The notes below the pieces were generated by a model. That model saw nothing but the letters and a program-made list of their open reading frames with translations, was not told the DNA's origin and searched no databases. From contig CANOYV010000003.1 of assembly GCA_947571605.1 (NCBI GenBank), forward strand, positions 3,976 through 67,975: 64,000 nt of DNA, read 5' to 3'. A program made the translations under genes and the position numbers. Shown one piece after another: positions 18,770-34,937 of this stretch (position 1 is the stretch's first letter; each line of letters opens with the position of its first letter). The DNA comes from an uncultured bacterium (GTDB taxonomy: Bacteria > Bacillota > Clostridia > Oscillospirales > Oscillospiraceae).

Positions 18770-19344
18770 AGCAACAACGGCTGAATCTGCTCCCCCCGGC
18801 AGGCGGCCTCGACGGTCTCGGGGACCAGGGTGAAGTCGGCCACCAGAGAGGTGGGCTTGCCCATGCAGTCGTCTTGGCCGAAGGGCACGAAGTACACGTT
18901 TTTGCGCCCCAGCATGGTCCCCAGGTTGGGGGCGCTCCCGGCTAAGCCGTCATTGGTAGCCAGCGCCAGCACCAGCGGTTTCCCGTTGCGCAGGTGCGCT
19001 TTCGCCGCCATGGTCACCGAGCTGTCAGTGACGCCGTGGGCCAGCTTGGCCAGGGTGTTGCCCGTGCAGGGGCAGATCACCAGCACGTCCAGCAGCCCCT
19101 TTGGCCCGATGGGCTCCGCCCCGGCCACGGTGTCGATCACCCGGCGGTCGCACAGCCGCTCCATCTCCCGCATAAAGTCGTGGGCCTTCCCGAACCGGGT
19201 GTCGGTGGACGCCACCGTCTCGGACACGATGGGCGTCACCGGCCCGAACCGGGCGGTCGTCTGCTCCAAAGCGTCCAGCGCCTTGGACATGGTGCAAAAG
19301 GACCCGCAGAACGCGAAGCCCACTTTTAACTCCTTATGATTCAC
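18757..19344 (-). CDS. spoVFB: Dipicolinate synthase subunit B
   Basis: VGFAFCGSFCT, AEPIGPK, PCTGNTLAKLA, NVYFVPFGQDD, KPTSLVA motifs; GTG start overlaps the spoVFA stop. Confidence 0.93.
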   Translation of the reverse strand: MNHKELKVGFAFCGSFCTMSKALDALEQTTARFGPVTPIVSETVASTDTRFGKAHDFMREMERLCDRRVIDTVAGAEPIGPKGLLDVLVICPCTGNTLAKLAHGVTDSSVTMAAKAHLRNGKPLVLALATNDGLAGSAPNLGTMLGRKNVYFVPFGQDDCMGKPTSLVADFTLVPETVEAACRGEQIQPLLLAQG

Positions 19345-19820
19345 AGGTCTGATTCCTCCATGATATGATAGACGGTATCCTTGATGTACCGTCCCGAGGT
19401 GACGGGAGCCACCTTTCCCGGCAGGGACAGCGCCCAGATCACCCGCACACCCAGGGTGGCGGCGGCGTCCATATCCACCCCGCCGGGGCGAGACGCCAGG
19501 TCGATGACCAGGGCCCGCTCCTTCAAAGCGGCCAGCTCCTCCACCCCCAGCACCGGGGCGGGCACCGTGTTGAAAACGATATCGTAGCTGCACAGCCAGT
19601 CGCTCAGGTGATCCATACCCTCGCTGTTCAGGCCCATGCACTCGGCGGCGGCCCGCTGCTCATACCGCCGGGCGGACACCCACACCCGGGCCCCCAGCGC
19701 CCGCAGCCGGGGCGCCAGCGTCCGGCCCAGCCGCCCAAAGCCGATGACCAGCACACGGGCGTCGTGGAGGGTGATGGGCAGCTCCTCCATGGCGATCTGG
19801 ATGGCGCCCTCAGCGGTGGG
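19341..19820 (-). CDS. spoVFA: Dipicolinate synthase subunit A, 3' portion (interrupted gene)
   Basis: PTAEGAIQIAM, Rossmann GFGRLG, IDLASRPGG, LSLPGKVAP; no 5' part adjacent, the missing 5' part is at 34398-34783. Confidence 0.92.
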   Translation of the reverse strand, partial: PTAEGAIQIAMEELPITLHDARVLVIGFGRLGRTLAPRLRALGARVWVSARRYEQRAAAECMGLNSEGMDHLSDWLCSYDIVFNTVPAPVLGVEELAALKERALVIDLASRPGGVDMDAAATLGVRVIWALSLPGKVAPVTSGRYIKDTVYHIMEESDL

Positions 19821-19843
19821 TAGGGCGTTAGCGGTATGGTAAC
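19819..19843. other. Attachment site adjoining the spoVFA 3' portion (P arm plus CC core)
   Basis: Core 19819-19820, 3-bp spacer, arm GGCGTTAGCGGTATGGTAAC at 19824-19843. Confidence 0.88.
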
Positions 19844-19845
19844 GC

Positions 19846-19885
19846 AAAAAAAGAGAGACGGCCATCAACCAGCCATCTCTCTTTT
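19846..19885 (-). terminator. Intrinsic terminator at the element end, facing spoVFA 3' portion and spoVFB
   Basis: Stem AAAAGAGAGAUGGC/GCCGUCUCUCUUUU with a U-G wobble on the minus strand, followed by a U7 tract. Confidence 0.75.
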
Positions 19886-19923: not shown

Positions 19924-20424
19924 TCATCTACAAACGTCCAATTGCTGCATTGGGACGGAAACTGCATGATTAAGCCACCCATCCTGATATGTCCCCACAT
20001 AAACATAAACAGGGATGGAGAGCCGTTCTAAATACCGCTCCATCAGCGGGCGAACCTCTTCCCAGTCCAGCCCGCCGTTTCCGCAGCCCAGCCGGGGAAA
20101 CGCGATGGAGGCGATTCCCTTTTCCACATAGGTGTCCGCGAATTTTTGCAACCCCGCCTCGATGTATTCCAGCTTAGAGGGACTCCGCCAATGCTTTTTG
20201 GTTGGGAACATAAGCACCCATTTTTCCGGGCCCTTCCAGAGGAGGAGCTTCCCGATTTCCAACTGTTTTTCATCGCATACCCGCTCGTAGCTCTTGAACA
20301 TCGCCGGGTAGCGCTTTTTGAATTCCAGCGCAACGCCCTTTCCCATCACCCCTACAGTGTTCACCGTATTGACCAGCACTTGCGCCGGACTGCTGAATAT
20401 ATCGCCTTTCAAATAGGTAATCAT
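19924..20424 (-). CDS. DarG-like macrodomain protein, macrodomain only
   Basis: VNTVNTVGVMGKGVALEFK, FPTKKHWR and SIAFPRLGCGNGGLDW match DarG-type macrodomains. Confidence 0.8.
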   Translation of the reverse strand: MITYLKGDIFSSPAQVLVNTVNTVGVMGKGVALEFKKRYPAMFKSYERVCDEKQLEIGKLLLWKGPEKWVLMFPTKKHWRSPSKLEYIEAGLQKFADTYVEKGIASIAFPRLGCGNGGLDWEEVRPLMERYLERLSIPVYVYVGTYQDGWLNHAVSVPMQQLDVCR

Positions 20425-20590
20425 CACCATCACCTCAAACACGCATCATCAATATTTAGTATAACACAGCAGAAAGAAAAGTAAAAGACAAATCGAACTA
20501 AGGCTCAAAGGATTTCACTTTCCTGCATATCTTTGAGTGCCTGTCAAGCCAACCAAGCGGGACAGGAAAAATTTTGCGCAGGATTTTTGA

Positions 20591-20690
20591 GTTTCTGCAC
20601 TATACTGCAAAAACTTTCTTCTTTTTATAGTTTCTGCACTACAGTGCAGAAACTTTTCTTTTTTCGACAATTTTGCACCGAGCAAACCCC
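20591..20690. repeat. Three 39-bp-period palindromic repeats
   Basis: Copies at 20591, 20630 (perfect GTTTCTGCACT-AC-AGTGCAGAAAC) and 20669 (degenerate). Confidence 0.65.
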
Positions 20691-20771
20691 CGGCCTCCTG
20701 AGAGGGGAGGCCGGGGGTTCAATCTCCGTCTGACACGGCTGCACCACCTCCCACCGCTGGAGGGGGAGGTG

Positions 20772-21179
20772 TTACAGCCATGACAGGTCAGCCGCAGAAT
20801 ATCGCTTCACAATTTCCCGCTCCATGCGCTGGAACGCGGGGATATAGGTGTCAATGATGGTCAGCGCCAATCTCCGGGCGGCGTTTCCATCGTATATATG
20901 GCTCATATTATTGCGGTCACGGAGCATGGCAATCCAAACGTCCTCATCCACAAAGTCATAGACCTGAAACGCTACCTTTAAAATCTCCCGGGGGGAGCCG
21001 GATCTGGCCTCACTCCTGCCCTCGTATTGGAGCAGTTCCTTGAGCACCTTCCACCCCAGTTCAAATTGAATCATAAATTTGTCGATGATTCCGCCTATGA
21101 CAAACTCATTTTCCAGGTCCTGCTGGCCCGCCGTTGACAGAACTTCCAGATTGGCCCGGTAATGGTCAAGCTTTTTCAT
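20772..21179 (-). CDS. HEPN-domain toxin, HI0074/HepT family
   Basis: GIIDKFMIQFELGWKVLK and the RNNMSH R-x4-H motif; paired with an MNT gene. Confidence 0.82.
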   Translation of the reverse strand: MKKLDHYRANLEVLSTAGQQDLENEFVIGGIIDKFMIQFELGWKVLKELLQYEGRSEARSGSPREILKVAFQVYDFVDEDVWIAMLRDRNNMSHIYDGNAARRLALTIIDTYIPAFQRMEREIVKRYSAADLSWL

Positions 21180-21462
21180 AGAGAACCCGTCCCTCCTTTT
21201 GAATCGAAGCCAGCAGGTCTGGAGAGACATCCTGGCCCATGTCCACCACATCATACTTCAACAGAGTGGAGGTCTCCTCGTCAATGTCCGTCGCGAACCG
21301 TGCGACGCTGCCGCCCCAGACCGCCAGATCAATATCGCTGGCCCGGTGGTGGTCCCCCCTGGCGCGGGAGCCGAACAGAACCACTTTGTCCAGCTGATGC
21401 CGCTGCGCAAACCGGCAGATTTCCCTCTGCACCTGCTCTTTGATCCCGGTTCCGGCCAGCAT
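21166..21462 (-). CDS. Minimal nucleotidyltransferase antitoxin (MntA-like)
   Basis: LFGSRARGD...SDIDLAV motif; overlaps the HEPN gene. Confidence 0.85.
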   Translation of the reverse strand: MLAGTGIKEQVQREICRFAQRHQLDKVVLFGSRARGDHHRASDIDLAVWGGSVARFATDIDEETSTLLKYDVVDMGQDVSPDLLASIQKEGRVLYEKA

Positions 21463-27657: not shown

Positions 27658-27792
27658 CAACACCTATCACCCGGAAAGGAGCGCGATCCCCAATGATGAA
27701 CTGAGCAACGATATCCTGAGCCTTTTGGCCGCCGCTGTGGCCGCCGGTCTGTGCGCGGCCATCGACTACATTTTAGAGGAGGAAACAGACTG

Positions 27793-28904
27793 ATGACAGA
27801 AACCTTTATTTGCTCTGCCTGTGGAGAGGTCCACCCGCTGGAGGATCGGACGGTGGTGGACGGCCAGGAGTTCTGCCGCCCCTGCCTGGAGGAGGAAACC
27901 GTTGTGTGCCACGAGTGCGGCCGGCACATCCTGCGGGAGGACAACGCGGGGGACGATACCACGCCCCTGTGCCAGAACTGCTATGACCGCTATTACACCA
28001 ACTGCACCCGCTGCGGGGCGCTACTGGAGCTGGACCGCGCCTACTACCTCAGCGATGACGCGGACGAGGAGGAGCCGTTATGTCACGGCTGCTATGCGCT
28101 GCGTACCGATCCCGGGGAAATCCACAGCTATTACTACAAGCCGGACCCCATTTTCTATGGGGAAGGGGCACGCTATTTCAGCGTGGAGCTGGAAATCGAC
28201 GGGGCGGGGGAGCGCAGCGACCGGGCGTGGCAGTTGGTGAACGCGGCTAACAGCAACGGTTTGGAGCACATCTACATCAAGCATGACGGTTCCCTGGAGG
28301 ACGGCATGGAGATTGTTACCCACCCTATGACCCTGGGCTATCACCTCGCCGAGATGCCCTGGGGCGCGGTGGTGGCCGAGGCCGTCCGCATGGGCTACAC
28401 CAGCCATAAAGCCTGTACCTGCGGCCTCCATGTCCACGTCAATCGCTCGGCCTTTGGCCTGTCCGAGGAGGCCCAGGAGGCGGTGATCGCCCGCATCCTG
28501 TTCTTTGTGGAGAACCATTGGAACGAGCTGCTGCGGTTCAGCCGCCGCACCCGAGACCAGATGGAGCAGTGGGCGGCCCGGTATGGCTGGAAGGACAACC
28601 CCAAGGCGGTGCTGGACAGCGCCAAAAAGGAGCACTACCAACGGTACAAATGGTGAACCTGACCAATTATGATACCATAGAGTTTCGGATGTTCCGGGGG
28701 ACGCTGAAGCTCAATACCCTGATTGCCACCTTGCAGATGGTTGACCGCATCTGTGAGGTGGCTTTGTATTTGTCCGACCAGGAGATGCAGGGCCTGACCT
28801 GGACGGATTTTGTGTCCGGCTGTACCGCCCCGGAGCTGGTGCAGTACCTCAAGGAGCGGCGGCTCTACATCAACGAGCCGGTGGCCGTCCCCGAGGAGGT
28901 GTGA
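27793..28904 (+). pseudogene. Zn-finger-rich putative amidoligase (COOH-NH2 ligase type 2), frameshifted near 28651
   Basis: Multiple CxxC motifs, VELEID, KHDGSL, MEIVTHP, CGLHVHV; C-terminal TIEFRMFRGT lies in another frame (28518-28904 ORF). Confidence 0.78.
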
Positions 28905-31243: not shown

Positions 31244-31585
31244 TCAGCCGCCCATTGGCTGATCTTTTTTTGCGTCCATTGCCATGAGAAACGTCCGCAG
31301 AAGCCGCTCCGCGTACTCCCGCTCCGTGGGTGTGGCGCTTTGAAGCATGAGGGCTATGGTATTGCTCTCCTCCACTGTGGACGTACCATATAAAATATAG
31401 TCCGTAGACAGCCGGAGGGCACGGGATATTTTACACAGGGTTGGGACGGACATTCCCTTCACCCCCAGCTCAATATCCGAGCAGAACTTGGGCGTCACGT
31501 CCAGCAGCTCGGCAAACTGCTCCCGGGTGTAGCCCATAAACTCCCGCTGTGTACGGATTCGCTTTCCAATCGCGCCCCAGTCCAT
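31244..31585 (-). CDS. XRE-family transcriptional regulator
   Basis: IGKRIRTQREFMGYTREQFAELLDVTPKFCSDIELG. Confidence 0.85.
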   Translation of the reverse strand: MDWGAIGKRIRTQREFMGYTREQFAELLDVTPKFCSDIELGVKGMSVPTLCKISRALRLSTDYILYGTSTVEESNTIALMLQSATPTEREYAERLLRTFLMAMDAKKDQPMGG

Positions 31586-31756
31586 TCAACCCCTCCGTTC
31601 CTTCTGTAGTTTAACCCGGAAAGTTGTAGTTATAAATAAACTTACAGGGTTGACTATTAAGAACTCTTGGGGTATATTTAACATGATAGGCCACTACAAC
31701 ACAGCCGGGATTTGGCCCAATCTCCATACTACACAAAAATGCAGGAGGATATGACT

Positions 31757-32323
31757 ATGGGAGAGTATGTCAAGAAGAAAAAAGATATGAAATTTCAAAG
31801 CCAGGATGCACTGAAAGCAGTTCAGACCGTGCTTGACGAAGCGGCCCAGGCATTGAATGACAAATCAAGAAAGATATCTGATTCTCCGATTGCCGATGCC
31901 CTCGCGGGCGCGGTGGGCGTAGGTCTGGGCGCGGGCATTGGCTTTGCGGGACTGTACCTCGGCGGCTCTGTTGTGGGCCTGAGCGCCGCAGGAATCACCA
32001 GCGGACTGGCCGCAGCCGGCGGACTGATTGGCGGTGGAATGGCGGCGGGACTCGCTGTATTGGCGGCCCCCGCCGTGGTGCTAGGCGGTGCTGGAATCGG
32101 TGTTGCTTCTCATATACGGAACAAAAAGCTGCGCGAAGCGAAAGAAATCCTTTACAAAGACGCTGTTGCCAAACAGTCAGCCATTGTAAGAGCATTGAAA
32201 GAGGAGACGAATGCGGATAAGGATCGAATTGAGTATCTGCAAAGCTTGAACATACTCCTCCAATCCGCTATCCGGGATTTGCAGCACGATTTGGGCAAAG
32301 ATGCCTTAGCGATTCGCACTTGA
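31757..32323 (+). CDS. Hypothetical glycine-rich membrane protein, paralog 1
   Basis: AGGAGG RBS; long Gly/Ala hydrophobic core and C-terminal coiled coil. Confidence 0.75.
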   Translation: MGEYVKKKKDMKFQSQDALKAVQTVLDEAAQALNDKSRKISDSPIADALAGAVGVGLGAGIGFAGLYLGGSVVGLSAAGITSGLAAAGGLIGGGMAAGLAVLAAPAVVLGGAGIGVASHIRNKKLREAKEILYKDAVAKQSAIVRALKEETNADKDRIEYLQSLNILLQSAIRDLQHDLGKDALAIRT

Positions 32324-32347
32324 TAAAGTATTGGAGGAATCCTTAAA

Positions 32348-32893
32348 ATGGGAGAATATATCACAAAAAAAGAGGACATGAAATTCCAAAGCCAGGAGGC
32401 CCTGGTTCCTGTGCAGAACGTCATCGACGAAGCGGGCAAGGTGCTGAACGATCCCTCGCTGCGGGTTGAGGATTCCGCCATCAGTGGGGCAATTACCGGG
32501 GCACTGGGTGCGGGTGCGGGCGGTGCCCTTGGATTTGCTGGGCTTTATTTTGGCGGTACGGTAGGGTTAAGTGCGGTAGGAATCACCAGTGGATTGGCCG
32601 CAGCCGGCGGGCTAATCGGCGGCGGTATGGCCGCAGGGCTTGCCGTATTGGCGGCCCCTGCTGTTATCCTGGGCGTAATTGGAGCCGCAATCGGCGCTGC
32701 TTCGGAGGAAGAAAAGCTCCATGAGGCAAAGGAGTTAGTATACAAAAACGCCATTGAAAAACAGACGGCGATCCTCAAAGTATTGGCCTTTGAAACCAAC
32801 GCGGATAAGGAGAGAATTGAGTATCTTACCGGCCTCAATATTCTCCTGGACTCCGCCATCAAAGATTTGAAACATGACTTGGGAATAGCGTGA
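32348..32893 (+). CDS. Hypothetical glycine-rich membrane protein, paralog 2
   Basis: Clear paralog of the preceding ORF (MGEY..K..DMKFQSQ.AL; GITSGLAAAGGLIGGGMAAGLAVLAAPAV). Confidence 0.78.
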   Translation: MGEYITKKEDMKFQSQEALVPVQNVIDEAGKVLNDPSLRVEDSAISGAITGALGAGAGGALGFAGLYFGGTVGLSAVGITSGLAAAGGLIGGGMAAGLAVLAAPAVILGVIGAAIGAASEEEKLHEAKELVYKNAIEKQTAILKVLAFETNADKERIEYLTGLNILLDSAIKDLKHDLGIA

Positions 32894-32914
32894 ATCCTTC
32901 TGGAGGGTAAATCA

Positions 32915-34315
32915 GTGAGCCATTTTAAATACTCCGATCAAGAGAAAGACTTGAATAAAGTATTGAAGATGAATTTGGACATCTCTAAGTCTCTGCAAAA
33001 TGATTCTGGCATGGCCTCCACCCGCAAAGAAGCCGACGCCGCCATCGCATCCTCCCTGGAACTACTGCAATCTCTTGGAAAAGGCAAAGAAGTGGGCAAA
33101 CTGGCCCAGGAGGTTTCCGAACATGGGAAAGACCGGCACCTGGAGCACCGGCCCGAAATAGAACCCTGGGAGGAGATTGTCCGTCAGGCCAACGAGTATT
33201 GCCCCACCCCTGTCATGCTGGAAGATATTATGTCCGACCGCGAGATACAGGCGGCGTTTGACGAGCGAGACGAAATCCGCAGACGCTTTGCGGAAAAGAC
33301 CAGCATCGTCAACCCTACGGACTTAACTTTTTTGACTGTCGCCACCGCCCTGCAAGTTGCCAAAAGCCTGATTTTCCCCTATGTAGCGGGGATGTTCCAC
33401 TATGGCGAGAGCTTTGACCCTGCCACCAGACTGGCCCATAATGACAAATCCATTGAGCGTGCGCACCGGCAAGCTAATGACGCATTCCGGGACAAGCGTT
33501 TGGAAAGCCATGGTACAGGCCACTGGATCAACATTCTGTATCAAACGCCTCCATACGACATTACAAAGGGCTCGGCGGCCATGGGCATCAACATGGGCGG
33601 GCGCTATCACCGAATGTACACCCTGGGCCATGACCCGATCCTGGGCTGGCTTTTCGGCACCATGAACATTTTAACCGATGTCATCACATTGAACAATTTC
33701 AACTCTTACCGGGTCATTCGAAAGCCTAAAATGATTATCACACCCGAGCCCGTTTCCATTGGTCAAATGATTCAGGAGAGCTATCAGCTTGTGCAGGATG
33801 ACTTTCTCAACCTCCCTGCGGCAGTCTTTGCCCAGGCACGGCATTTCAAGTCTGACGAGTACACAAAATGCGGGCTCCCGGTTCCGATTCTCTCCAGCCT
33901 CAACGAAAATTTTGCCAGCAAGCTCTATAGGTCGCAGTACGATGCCCTTTGCTTTGCCCGTGACGCCAAAATCGTGGGCGCATCATTTATCGTGTCAAAG
34001 CTCTTTGATATTGTCATCTCCCTCGTCCACGGGCTGTTCTGTACCGAAGGCGAGGACAAAGACCTGTTTGAGTGCAGGACGCGGAAAATCCTGCTAATCT
34101 CCAACAGCATCGCCTCCACCAGCACCATCATCCACGCGGGGATCACTGCCAATCCCAAAAATCTGGATATTGGCAGTCTGCTCAATACCATCACTCACCT
34201 GTTTACGGATATCCACTTCATTCTGCGGGTCAAGCAGGAGTTCATCGACAGCGAAATTTCAAGCAGATTGCAGAAGGAGCTTGACGAGGTGGACAGGCTG
34301 TACGAGACGATTTAA
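32915..34315 (+). CDS. Hypothetical 466-aa protein with hydrophobic segments
   Basis: Long lower-GC ORF with HRMYTLGHDPILGWLFG motif; third gene of the operon. Confidence 0.75.
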   Translation: MSHFKYSDQEKDLNKVLKMNLDISKSLQNDSGMASTRKEADAAIASSLELLQSLGKGKEVGKLAQEVSEHGKDRHLEHRPEIEPWEEIVRQANEYCPTPVMLEDIMSDREIQAAFDERDEIRRRFAEKTSIVNPTDLTFLTVATALQVAKSLIFPYVAGMFHYGESFDPATRLAHNDKSIERAHRQANDAFRDKRLESHGTGHWINILYQTPPYDITKGSAAMGINMGGRYHRMYTLGHDPILGWLFGTMNILTDVITLNNFNSYRVIRKPKMIITPEPVSIGQMIQESYQLVQDDFLNLPAAVFAQARHFKSDEYTKCGLPVPILSSLNENFASKLYRSQYDALCFARDAKIVGASFIVSKLFDIVISLVHGLFCTEGEDKDLFECRTRKILLISNSIASTSTIIHAGITANPKNLDIGSLLNTITHLFTDIHFILRVKQEFIDSEISSRLQKELDEVDRLYETI

Positions 34316-34322
34316 CCTAAAA

Positions 34323-34357
34323 GAATGCCCGAGCGGGATCGCCCTGCCCGGGCATTC
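34323..34357. terminator. Hairpin between the three-gene operon and the att site
   Basis: GAATGCCCG...CGGGCATTC stem. Confidence 0.55.
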
Positions 34358-34374: not shown

Positions 34375-34399
34375 GTTACCATACCGCTAACGCCACAGG
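34375..34399. other. Attachment site adjoining the spoVFA 5' portion (P arm plus CC core)
   Basis: Arm GTTACCATACCGCTAACGCC at 34375-34394 (exact reverse complement of 19824-19843), 3-bp spacer, core 34398-34399. Confidence 0.88.
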
Positions 34400-34783
34400 G
34401 ATTGCGTTCATCACCGCCAATTCCTCCTGTGCGAAATAGTCCCGCAGAACCAGTTCCCGCAACGCCGCCATCCGCTTCAAATCGCTCCCCGCCATCCCGG
34501 CGCATACAAGTTGGCCGGGACGCAGGGCGTTCAGCACTTCCTTCAGCTCATGACGCTCCGCCGCCAGCGGCGCGTTCAGCGTCCCGTCCGCCCACGCCGC
34601 CGGAAGGGGCAGGATTACACAATCCGCCCGGTCTATCCCGGCCATGGACGCCTCACATTTCATCTCTCCCCCCTGCTCCAGGGCGTAGGTATGCACGCTG
34701 TGACCGTCGTCGGCCAGCAGGACCGCCAACGCCGCCTGCCGGGGGTCGCCCCCCACTACCCAAATATTTTTTGCCCGCAGCAT
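34398..34783 (-). CDS. spoVFA: Dipicolinate synthase subunit A, 5' portion (interrupted gene)
   Basis: AGGAGG RBS; VVGGDPRQ, VILPLP, DYFAQEELAVMNAIP; the unexcised form stops at TAA 34376 inside the att arm. Confidence 0.92.
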
Positions 34784-34937
34784 GATAAACCTCCTGTCCG
34801 GGCCGACCGGCCCTCTCGTCATCAATCCAGTGTATTCCCCACCGGCCGGACAGGTGACTGAGCAAAACATCATGCACATGCAATTTTTTTGAAAAACGGG
34901 GCATACTGTTTTCACCAATACATTTGGAGGGAATAAT

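Follow-up and report, generated by a model that had tools for sequence, protein, structure and literature searches.

A candidate TerB-less, partner-duplicated variant of the Bunzi/BnzB superfamily at the end of a mobile element in Oscillospiraceae

Bunzi, composed of BnzA and BnzB, is a validated anti-phage system reported by Millman et al. 2022 (preprint 10.1101/2022.05.11.491447). It is described in the literature through the TerB domain of BnzA, a protein to which predicted transmembrane helices and a lipid-interacting domain are also ascribed; "membrane surveillance" is offered as a possible role, and the mechanism is not known (10.1101/2022.05.11.491447). Protection against phages AR9 and PBS1 is assigned in this preprint to the dynamin system and is not claimed here for Bunzi. 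We analyzed a three-gene operon, with the XRE-family regulator divergent from it, that lies in a stretch of 64,000 nucleotides (the window) from an uncultured bacterium of the Oscillospiraceae (GenBank assembly GCA_947571605.1, contig CANOYV010000003.1, positions 3,976 to 67,975 of the forward strand). A previous reading of the same letters without database searches (the sequence-only reading) had taken it for a candidate anti-phage or pore-forming system and had been unable to name a family. A family can be assigned, from a PADLOC match of the third protein to BnzB (E = 8.1e-24) and from matches of the first two to the membrane part of BnzA. On these sequence comparisons, the operon can be filed as a TerB-less, partner-duplicated variant in the Bunzi/BnzB superfamily. 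It is probably a membrane-associated anti-phage or anti-invader cassette carried by a mobile element, a judgment that concerns the class of the system and extends with much lower confidence to its details.

The stronger case is that of the large protein. Its residues 65–455 align with positions 93–492 of the 504 in the BnzB profile (PDLC03834), and 13 other proteins of the large family match the same model with E-values from 1e-23 to 1e-138. In an alignment of 79 homologs of the large protein, which includes the canonical-like BnzB of locus L014 (E = 2e-138), the window's protein and the L014 protein have in common D136, D215, H232, H239, P241, G244, F247, N251, H310, D314, and P324. H310 and P324 are invariant in the whole alignment, and the most conserved block of the family is HR-x4-GHDP (H232-R233...G238-H239-D240-P241). 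This motif and the hydrophobic segments had both been noticed in the sequence-only reading, and both are present, the latter as moderately hydrophobic helices at about 137–157 and 350–377. At the level of profiles, homology to BnzB is established, as a superfamily relationship that is distant but near full-length. To judge from the residues themselves, this Asp/His constellation is a putative site of metal binding or catalysis.

The AlphaFold2 model of the large protein is confident (predicted local distance difference test, pLDDT, 91.2; predicted template modeling score 0.74). It has three N-terminal helices (8–72, in an extension covering approximately residues 1–75), a mainly helical core, and a three-stranded sheet (256–279), with long helices at 134–160, 344–373, 382–411, and 419–465. 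Foldseek returned no match at E ≤ 0.001 among 350,542 PDB chains (best E = 1.6) and no significant match in BFVD (best E = 0.22), and a sequence profile search of the PDB gave no match either. The protein matches no Pfam, NCBIfam, or PHROGs family, and Pfam yielded only scattered chance hits on the 79 homologs. As modeled, the fold has no solved relative in the PDB and BFVD libraries.

The two small proteins, sA and sB, are the tandem paralogs of 188 and 181 residues that had been recognized before, and they are 68% identical (BLASTP E = 2e-58). Between residues 45 and 120, each contains 22 Gly, 19–20 Ala, 26–27 [GAS]xxx[GAS] pairs, and one charged residue; the Kyte-Doolittle maxima of this tract reach 2.1–2.4, predicting in both paralogs the transmembrane segment expected of a BnzA partner. 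From the N-terminus onward, sA consists of a helix, a Gly/Ala-zipper hydrophobic tract of about 75 residues, a juxtamembrane patch that is basic (SHIRNKKLREAK), and a helical hairpin at the C-terminus. The corresponding patch of sB is acidic (AASEEEKLHEAK), and the changes diagnostic of sB relative to sA are K9E, R38L, H119A, and K123E. The long Gly/Ala tract of the sequence-only reading therefore stands, while its "C-terminal coiled coil" is better described, from the sA model, as a predicted helical hairpin. This model has a low confidence (pLDDT 52), with helices 16–34, 118–149, and 155–179 at pLDDT of about 65–72, and supports only the N-terminal helix and the C-terminal hairpin. Both proteins match the PADLOC BnzA profile (PDLC03833; E-values in Table 1), only at positions 295–411 of its 544 (about 110 positions), residues 47–153 of sA falling on 303–411. 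At best, they would be counterparts of the BnzA membrane segment and of its next helix. sA has a further PADLOC match, to the C-terminal part of LeoBC (E = 2e-5), and neither sA nor sB has a Pfam, NCBIfam, or PHROGs family. The case for the small proteins as BnzA relatives is weaker than the one for BnzB, and synteny and architecture provide a stronger argument than the profile match.

This argument is best seen in locus L029, from genome G282 of the same class, where a WYL regulator is followed by a BnzA of 362 residues and a BnzB of 431 residues. At its N-terminus, this BnzA matches the part of the BnzA profile that contains TerB; a hydrophobic Gly-rich tract and a coiled coil come next, and this BnzB is of the same HR-x4-GHDP subfamily as the window's protein. 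The full form of BnzA therefore pairs with the same BnzB subfamily as in the window, and sA and sB look like the L029 partner minus its N-terminal sensor part.

A number of observations weigh against assigning the operon to Bunzi and, through it, to defense. TerB is absent: none of the three operon proteins has a Pfam TerB hit at E ≤ 0.1, in searches that do detect the domain or its region in two relatives, L017 and L029. The operon has a BnzB-family protein and lacks a TerB-bearing BnzA, and for this reason we do not call it Bunzi in the strict sense. The comparison of the large protein with the canonical-like BnzB of L014 is not significant by BLASTP (E = 0.39), the homology being visible through profiles only, and the fold search gives no hint of the activity of the modeled protein. 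What sA and sB share with BnzA is a short match, located in hydrophobic sequence rich in Gly and Ala, for which composition may be partly responsible. Against other partner proteins, sA gave weak results in pairwise and in profile comparisons (best profile E = 4.5e-4, probability 33%). The topology and oligomerization of sA and sB are guesses, because the model of the small protein is unreliable. Finally, a Bunzi system predicted by PADLOC/DefenseFinder on a lactococcal plasmid was unprotective against the lactococcal phages tested (PMC11381338).

The operon was found as the sequence-only reading had laid it out, with three plus-strand genes facing a divergent minus-strand XRE gene in the open reading frame (ORF) listing (Table 1). 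The intergenic gaps are of 24 nucleotides (sA-sB) and 21 nucleotides (sB-large gene), and a GGAGG-type ribosome-binding site precedes each of the three genes by 7–9 nucleotides. The regulator matches defense-associated helix-turn-helix (HTH) models of PADLOC (HTH_VI, 5.6e-10; control protein, 2.1e-5; CapH, 6.5e-5), and its gene is retained beside the operon in L001 and L040–L044. It is presumed to be the repressor of the operon. In the divergent region, a promoter-like site is flanked on both sides by the arms of an 8-bp inverted repeat, a possible XRE operator; the hexamers of the former are unchanged in the four element copies compared, and the latter is retained in three of the four. Directly 3' of the stop codon of the large gene, before the boundary at which the element meets the 5' piece of spoVFA, another inverted repeat is a possible transcript-end hairpin; it has no T tract, and the terminator scan made no call there. 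The GC content is lower in the operon, as claimed before (0.51–0.55 over 31–34 kb vs. about 0.60–0.70 in much of the flanks).

Table 1. Position of the operon, its control elements, and the two halves of spoVFA in the window
Feature	Position	Strand	Evidence
Dipicolinate synthase A (spoVFA), NAD-binding half	19341..19868		
XRE-family HTH regulator, 113 residues	31244..31585	-	Pfam HTH_3 E = 5.9e-9
Divergent control region, 171 bp	31586..31756	.	consensus scan and repeat finder
Inverted repeat of 8 bp, GTTGTAGT / ACTACAAC	31623..31630 / 31693..31700		repeat finder
Promoter-like TTGACT-17-TATATT	31650..31678	+	consensus scan
sA, BnzA-short protein, 188 residues	31757..32323	+	PADLOC BnzA E = 8.9e-9
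sB, divergent sA paralog, 181 residues	32348..32893	+	PADLOC BnzA E = 6.4e-7; 68% identity to sA
BnzB-like protein, 466 residues, GTG start	32915..34315	+	PADLOC BnzB E = 8.1e-24
Inverted repeat GAATGCCCG (34323–34331) / CGGGCATTC (34349–34357)	34323..34357	+	direct sequence reading
Dipicolinate synthase A (spoVFA), N-terminal half	34376..34918	-	Pfam DpaA_N E = 2.4e-24

Relatives of these genes are abundant. Scoring of the best 8,000 candidates gave at least 1,372 clusters (90% identity) for the large protein, and the small protein has 3,108 homolog clusters; at 50% identity, the wider BnzB family is covered by 637 representatives, of which 159 fall below E = 1e-30. Among the hits listed there is no functional annotation, the few source names being "hypothetical protein" or similar. 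The named sources are metagenome-assembled genomes of Lachnospiraceae, Oscillospiraceae, and Clostridiales, together with Butyrivibrio, Turicibacter sanguinis, and Alkalibacterium. Identities across them are of 66–80%, and of 66–78% for the proteins from Lachnospiraceae, Turicibacter, and Alkalibacterium, which implies horizontal spread. The distribution is sporadic, as the large protein is present in two of 400 genomes sampled across the phylum and any BnzB in seven of the 37 genomes of the genus. In all of the approximately nine distinct contexts retrieved, the small gene is directly 5' of the large gene, nearly always as one copy. Gene order and identities show the pair of small and large genes to behave as a conserved, horizontally mobile unit.

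The neighbors of the pair differ from one context to another. In L011 they are PbeA-like/PLD, SNF2, PIN_8, serine recombinase, PrimPol-helicase-PLD, and DUF1016 genes. In L022–L026 the pair is 3' of a WYL regulator and beside genes for a PDC-M38A/AbiLi-like ATPase, DUF3226, PDDEXK, and nSTAND. It occupies a prophage-like end in L027, 3' of two large serine recombinases, and in L034 (a Turicibacter sanguinis assembly) the end of a satellite-like element of about 9 kb, 3' of holin and amidase genes. L036 is an element resembling integrative and conjugative elements (ICE-like), and L038 is chromosomal, near a NERD gene. The satellite-like element (L034:1–9401) encodes a serine recombinase, an HTH repressor, Rep, SSB, a small terminase, a holin, and an amidase, with the pair as its last two genes. 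Two phage records and 13 plasmids contain more distant homologs, every one of them annotated as hypothetical; among the plasmids are those of Lactococcus with a WYL gene, a gene of 205 codons, and one of 372 codons; WYL regulators accompany four of the variants. As read from the contexts retrieved, the pattern is the signature of mobile defense cargo. The earlier guess of an anti-phage role is in this way supported both by homology (BnzB and the membrane part of BnzA) and by context (defense islands and ends of mobile elements).

Partners and add-ons vary around the BnzB core. Besides the TerB-containing BnzA of L029, one finds a separate TerB protein with a Gly-rich partner and an M48-peptidase-BnzB fusion (L017 and L018), a PDC-M09A-like partner of 346 residues (L013 and L014), a Zn-ribbon/coiled-coil partner of 217 residues (L028), a multi-transmembrane N-terminal fusion (P0260), a C-terminal P-loop GTPase on BnzB with weak dynamin and LeoBC hits (P0285), and a fusion of BnzB with the BnzA TerB region (P0266), the only one of its kind found. 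In L017:4956–9102 and L018:187–4479 the M48-BnzB fusion has 778–796 residues; in L017 it is followed by the TerB protein (Pfam TerB E = 2.8e-6) and a partner of 337 residues with a Gly/Ala-rich N-terminus, and the gene order of L018 is similar. Pfam searches of ten fused representatives were mostly empty, with one GTPase and one case of Sel1 repeats. None of the 16 long fused representatives screened has a Gly-zipper tract, and there is therefore no fusion evidence for a contact between the Gly-zipper protein and BnzB. A bolder and tentative proposal, with a low but appreciable chance of being right, is that the Gly-zipper hairpin and BnzB form the actual effector core of a broad Bunzi superfamily. 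In that case, BnzB would be a metal-dependent enzyme or sensor of new fold acting at the membrane through D136/D215/H232/H239/H310/D314, with TerB, M48 peptidase, Zn-ribbon, and GTPase as interchangeable inputs, and the duplicated basic and acidic partner would be an obligate hetero-oligomer. If true, the family would have here its first architecture with two partners.

In L022 (1–6350), L023, and L025, three genes of dynamin-family GTPases and a gene for a protein of 831 residues (faint Sel1) lie directly 5' of the WYL-small-large genes, and the cluster is absent from L024 and L026, which are otherwise identical. The three proteins of the dynamin cluster tested match no PADLOC model at E ≤ 1e-5, and the cluster may represent an undescribed dynamin-type defense insertion. 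Dynamins also enter the first alternative to an anti-phage cassette, a module of membrane integrity or repair comparable to bacterial dynamin-like or PspA-type systems, which would seal or stabilize the cytoplasmic membrane under holins, phage injection, or antimicrobial peptides and protect by delaying lysis, not by abortive infection. One would cite for it the matches of sA (to the C-terminal part) and of the L014 partner to LeoBC of the dynamin-type Eleos system, the GTPase fusion P0285, the dynamin cluster itself, and the envelope-stress theme suggested by the TerB-containing relatives. However, the resemblance to LeoBC is weak and falls in hydrophobic or coiled-coil stretches, the absence of the cluster from L024 and L026 makes it a neighbor rather than a partner, and a sporadic distribution on mobile elements is that of defense cargo, unlike that of housekeeping envelope functions. 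We regard this alternative as rather unlikely.

The carrier of the operon can be delimited in the window. The N-terminal half of spoVFA lies 60 bp past the operon, which therefore lies at the right-hand end of an inserted element, in agreement with the position given to it in the sequence-only reading. Between the two halves of spoVFA are genes for a large serine recombinase, a D5-like helicase, a macro-domain protein, a HEPN-like protein, an amidoligase/GATase pair, a RelB antitoxin, and a small resolvase. This arrangement agrees with a carrier that is a 14.6-kb serine-recombinase element splitting spoVFA, with the operon in a variable cargo slot at its end. In the left part (19924–21254), the macro-domain (E = 3.8e-21) and HEPN-like NTase_sub_bind (E = 7.6e-30) genes imply that the element holds several defense-type or toxin-antitoxin-type cargos besides the operon. 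The amidoligase ORF (27751–28656) has 301 codons in the window vs. 370–429 in L013, L040, and L044, consistent with a frameshift.

Other cassettes occupy the slot between the small resolvase and the element end in genomes of the same genus. In L014 (4457–8146) and L013 it holds a canonical-like BnzB (427 residues in L014) and the 346-residue partner; in L016 (3804–7595) the element end beside the 5' piece of spoVFA holds a WYL gene, a gene of 358 codons, and a BnzB-like gene of 389 codons. This looks like an exchange of cassettes within one superfamily at a fixed element end. In L040:5743–12065 and L013:3343–8168, the same element family, with its small resolvase and XRE or a BnzB-family cargo, lies directly beside cotJB and cotJC (Mn_catalase), and not in spoVFA. 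The L013 ORF, taken as cotJC from its N-terminal sequence, has 140 codons vs. 191 in the Mn_catalase gene of L040. The cotJB/cotJC locus may therefore be a second sporulation locus used for integration.

Such a carrier invites a second alternative, that of a selfish maintenance or exclusion module in which a Gly-zipper membrane toxin is restrained by the large protein or by the XRE regulator, as in toxin-antitoxin systems, and in which defense against phages is not the primary role. Small hydrophobic proteins often act as membrane toxins, the cassette rides mobile elements and adjoins recombinases, and this element also has RelB-type antitoxin and NTase_sub_bind genes. On the other hand, a highly conserved protein of 466 residues with an enzyme-like residue set is unlike a typical antitoxin, copies also reside in chromosomal defense islands without an obvious element, and the homology is to a system reported to protect bacteria from phages. 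A maintenance function strikes us as quite improbable.

Two further alternatives can be dealt with briefly. A sporulation-linked function, such as a membrane role in the mother cell or forespore tied to excision, would fit the three different BnzB-family cassettes found in the genus at the same element end beside the 5' piece of spoVFA and the fourth element copy beside cotJB/cotJC, but it is very improbable, since close homologs of the pair occur in unrelated contexts (the Turicibacter sanguinis satellite-like element, the ICE-like element, and chromosomal islands), more distant ones occur on plasmids of Lactococcus, which is not known to sporulate, and cargo exchange within one element family is the simpler explanation. 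The sequence-only reading had compared the layout with multi-component alpha-pore-forming assemblies. A secreted toxin of this kind acting on other cells (ClyA, Hbl/Nhe, or YaxAB type), for which the all-alpha proteins, coiled-coil-like helices, hydrophobic segments, and three components per operon may be cited, is unsupported and scarcely credible, as the confident model of the large protein matches no PDB structure, a ClyA-like elongated helical bundle with a hydrophobic head included, no signal peptide was seen in the N-termini of the operon's proteins when these were read by eye, the basic unit elsewhere is of two genes and the third a later paralog, and the XRE/WYL regulators and neighbors are those of defense loci.

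Among the loci looked up, the duplication of the partner is confined to this element family. In the phylogenetic tree, sB-type proteins form a single clade (SH-aLRT 99) with a long stem. sA, like the sA genes that accompany sB in related elements, falls among the single-copy partners of other loci. The sB type accounts for approximately 26 of more than 2,000 clusters, with identities of at least 79% and then a drop to 71% or less. All the sB loci looked up are in this element family, beside the small resolvase and XRE genes, and the elements carrying them are inserted in spoVFA or adjoin cotJB/cotJC. In the index, 473 sample blocks contain the exact sB protein, and the element is therefore common. 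We read this as an old duplication followed by subfunctionalization, possibly yielding a heteromer. Relative to the 95%-identical L001 copy, the ratio of nonsynonymous to synonymous substitution rates is 0.063 for sA, 0.064 for sB, and 0.091 for the large gene, all three being under strong purifying selection. In the comparison of window 31757–34315 with L001:1726–4291, synonymous divergence is about 1.0–1.2 for sA/sB and 0.31 for the large gene, and nucleotide identity is 79–82% (sA and sB) and 92% (large gene). Because the small genes and the large gene differ in these two respects, a recombination breakpoint between them is suggested.

If the operon is an anti-phage cassette, one may sketch how it would work. 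sA and sB would insert in the cytoplasmic membrane as Gly-zipper helical hairpins with both ends cytoplasmic, and they would form a hetero-oligomer, as the basic and acidic juxtamembrane patches suggest. Their C-terminal helices could dock onto the helical N-terminal extension of the BnzB-like protein, which would serve as a sensor or an enzyme through its putative metal-binding or catalytic Asp/His site. Upon a phage-induced change of the membrane, the complex might permeabilize it, leading to abortive infection, or block a membrane step of the infection. The TerB domain of the fuller variants would be an optional input module, dispensed with here, and the divergent XRE repressor would hold expression in check.

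Because Bunzi is known through TerB, the window's locus and its many relatives change the emphasis: TerB appears dispensable, and the invariant unit is a BnzB-family protein with a short membrane partner. This provides a minimal two-gene system of about 650 residues for experimental dissection, a confident predicted model of the large protein with a candidate active site for mutation, and, in the sA/sB duplication, a natural experiment on the assembly of the partner. The position of the cassette also points to a cargo slot in the elements interrupting sporulation genes of gut Oscillospiraceae, which links developmental DNA rearrangements with the carriage of defense genes. In conclusion, the class is already known, and its minimal, abundant TerB-less variant is a good entry point to the open mechanism.

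Among known arrangements, the slot itself recalls the P2/P4 hotspots, which Rousset et al. are said to have described in 2022 as defense cargo hotspots of integrated mobile elements. Both have a fixed slot at the element end with alternative defense systems in different copies; here, in contrast, the carrier is a serine-recombinase element interrupting sporulation genes in Oscillospiraceae, and all the alternative slot cargos seen are of the BnzB superfamily. The PADLOC candidate system PDC-M09, found as PDC-M09A with the canonical-like BnzB in L014 and L013 of the same genus, shares the slot and the element family, and its partner also has Gly-rich hydrophobic stretches and a coiled coil beside a BnzB-family protein. 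Yet this partner has 346 residues and is encoded 3' of the BnzB gene, whereas the window's small genes are 5'; its similarity to sA is marginal (the hhalign comparison quoted above as the best for sA), and the window's proteins match no PDC-M09 model. With the dynamin-type Eleos system (LeoA, LeoBC), the operon shares the weak match of sA to LeoBC, the theme of action at the membrane, and the dynamin clusters adjoining some of its relatives, but its proteins have no GTPase domain in Pfam or PADLOC searches.

The closest system remains Bunzi. Likeness is found in the near full-length BnzB homolog with its Asp/His core in common, in the adjacent co-oriented partner with a hydrophobic membrane segment followed by helices, in the setting of mobile elements or defense islands, and in a mechanism known for neither. 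The window's operon differs in that its partner has 181–188 residues, without TerB and possibly without the lipid-interacting region, vs. the 544 positions of the BnzA profile, in the duplication of this partner into two diverged paralogs, in the attached XRE regulator, and in its large protein, which is of a distant GHDP subfamily and has additional helices extending it at the N-terminus.

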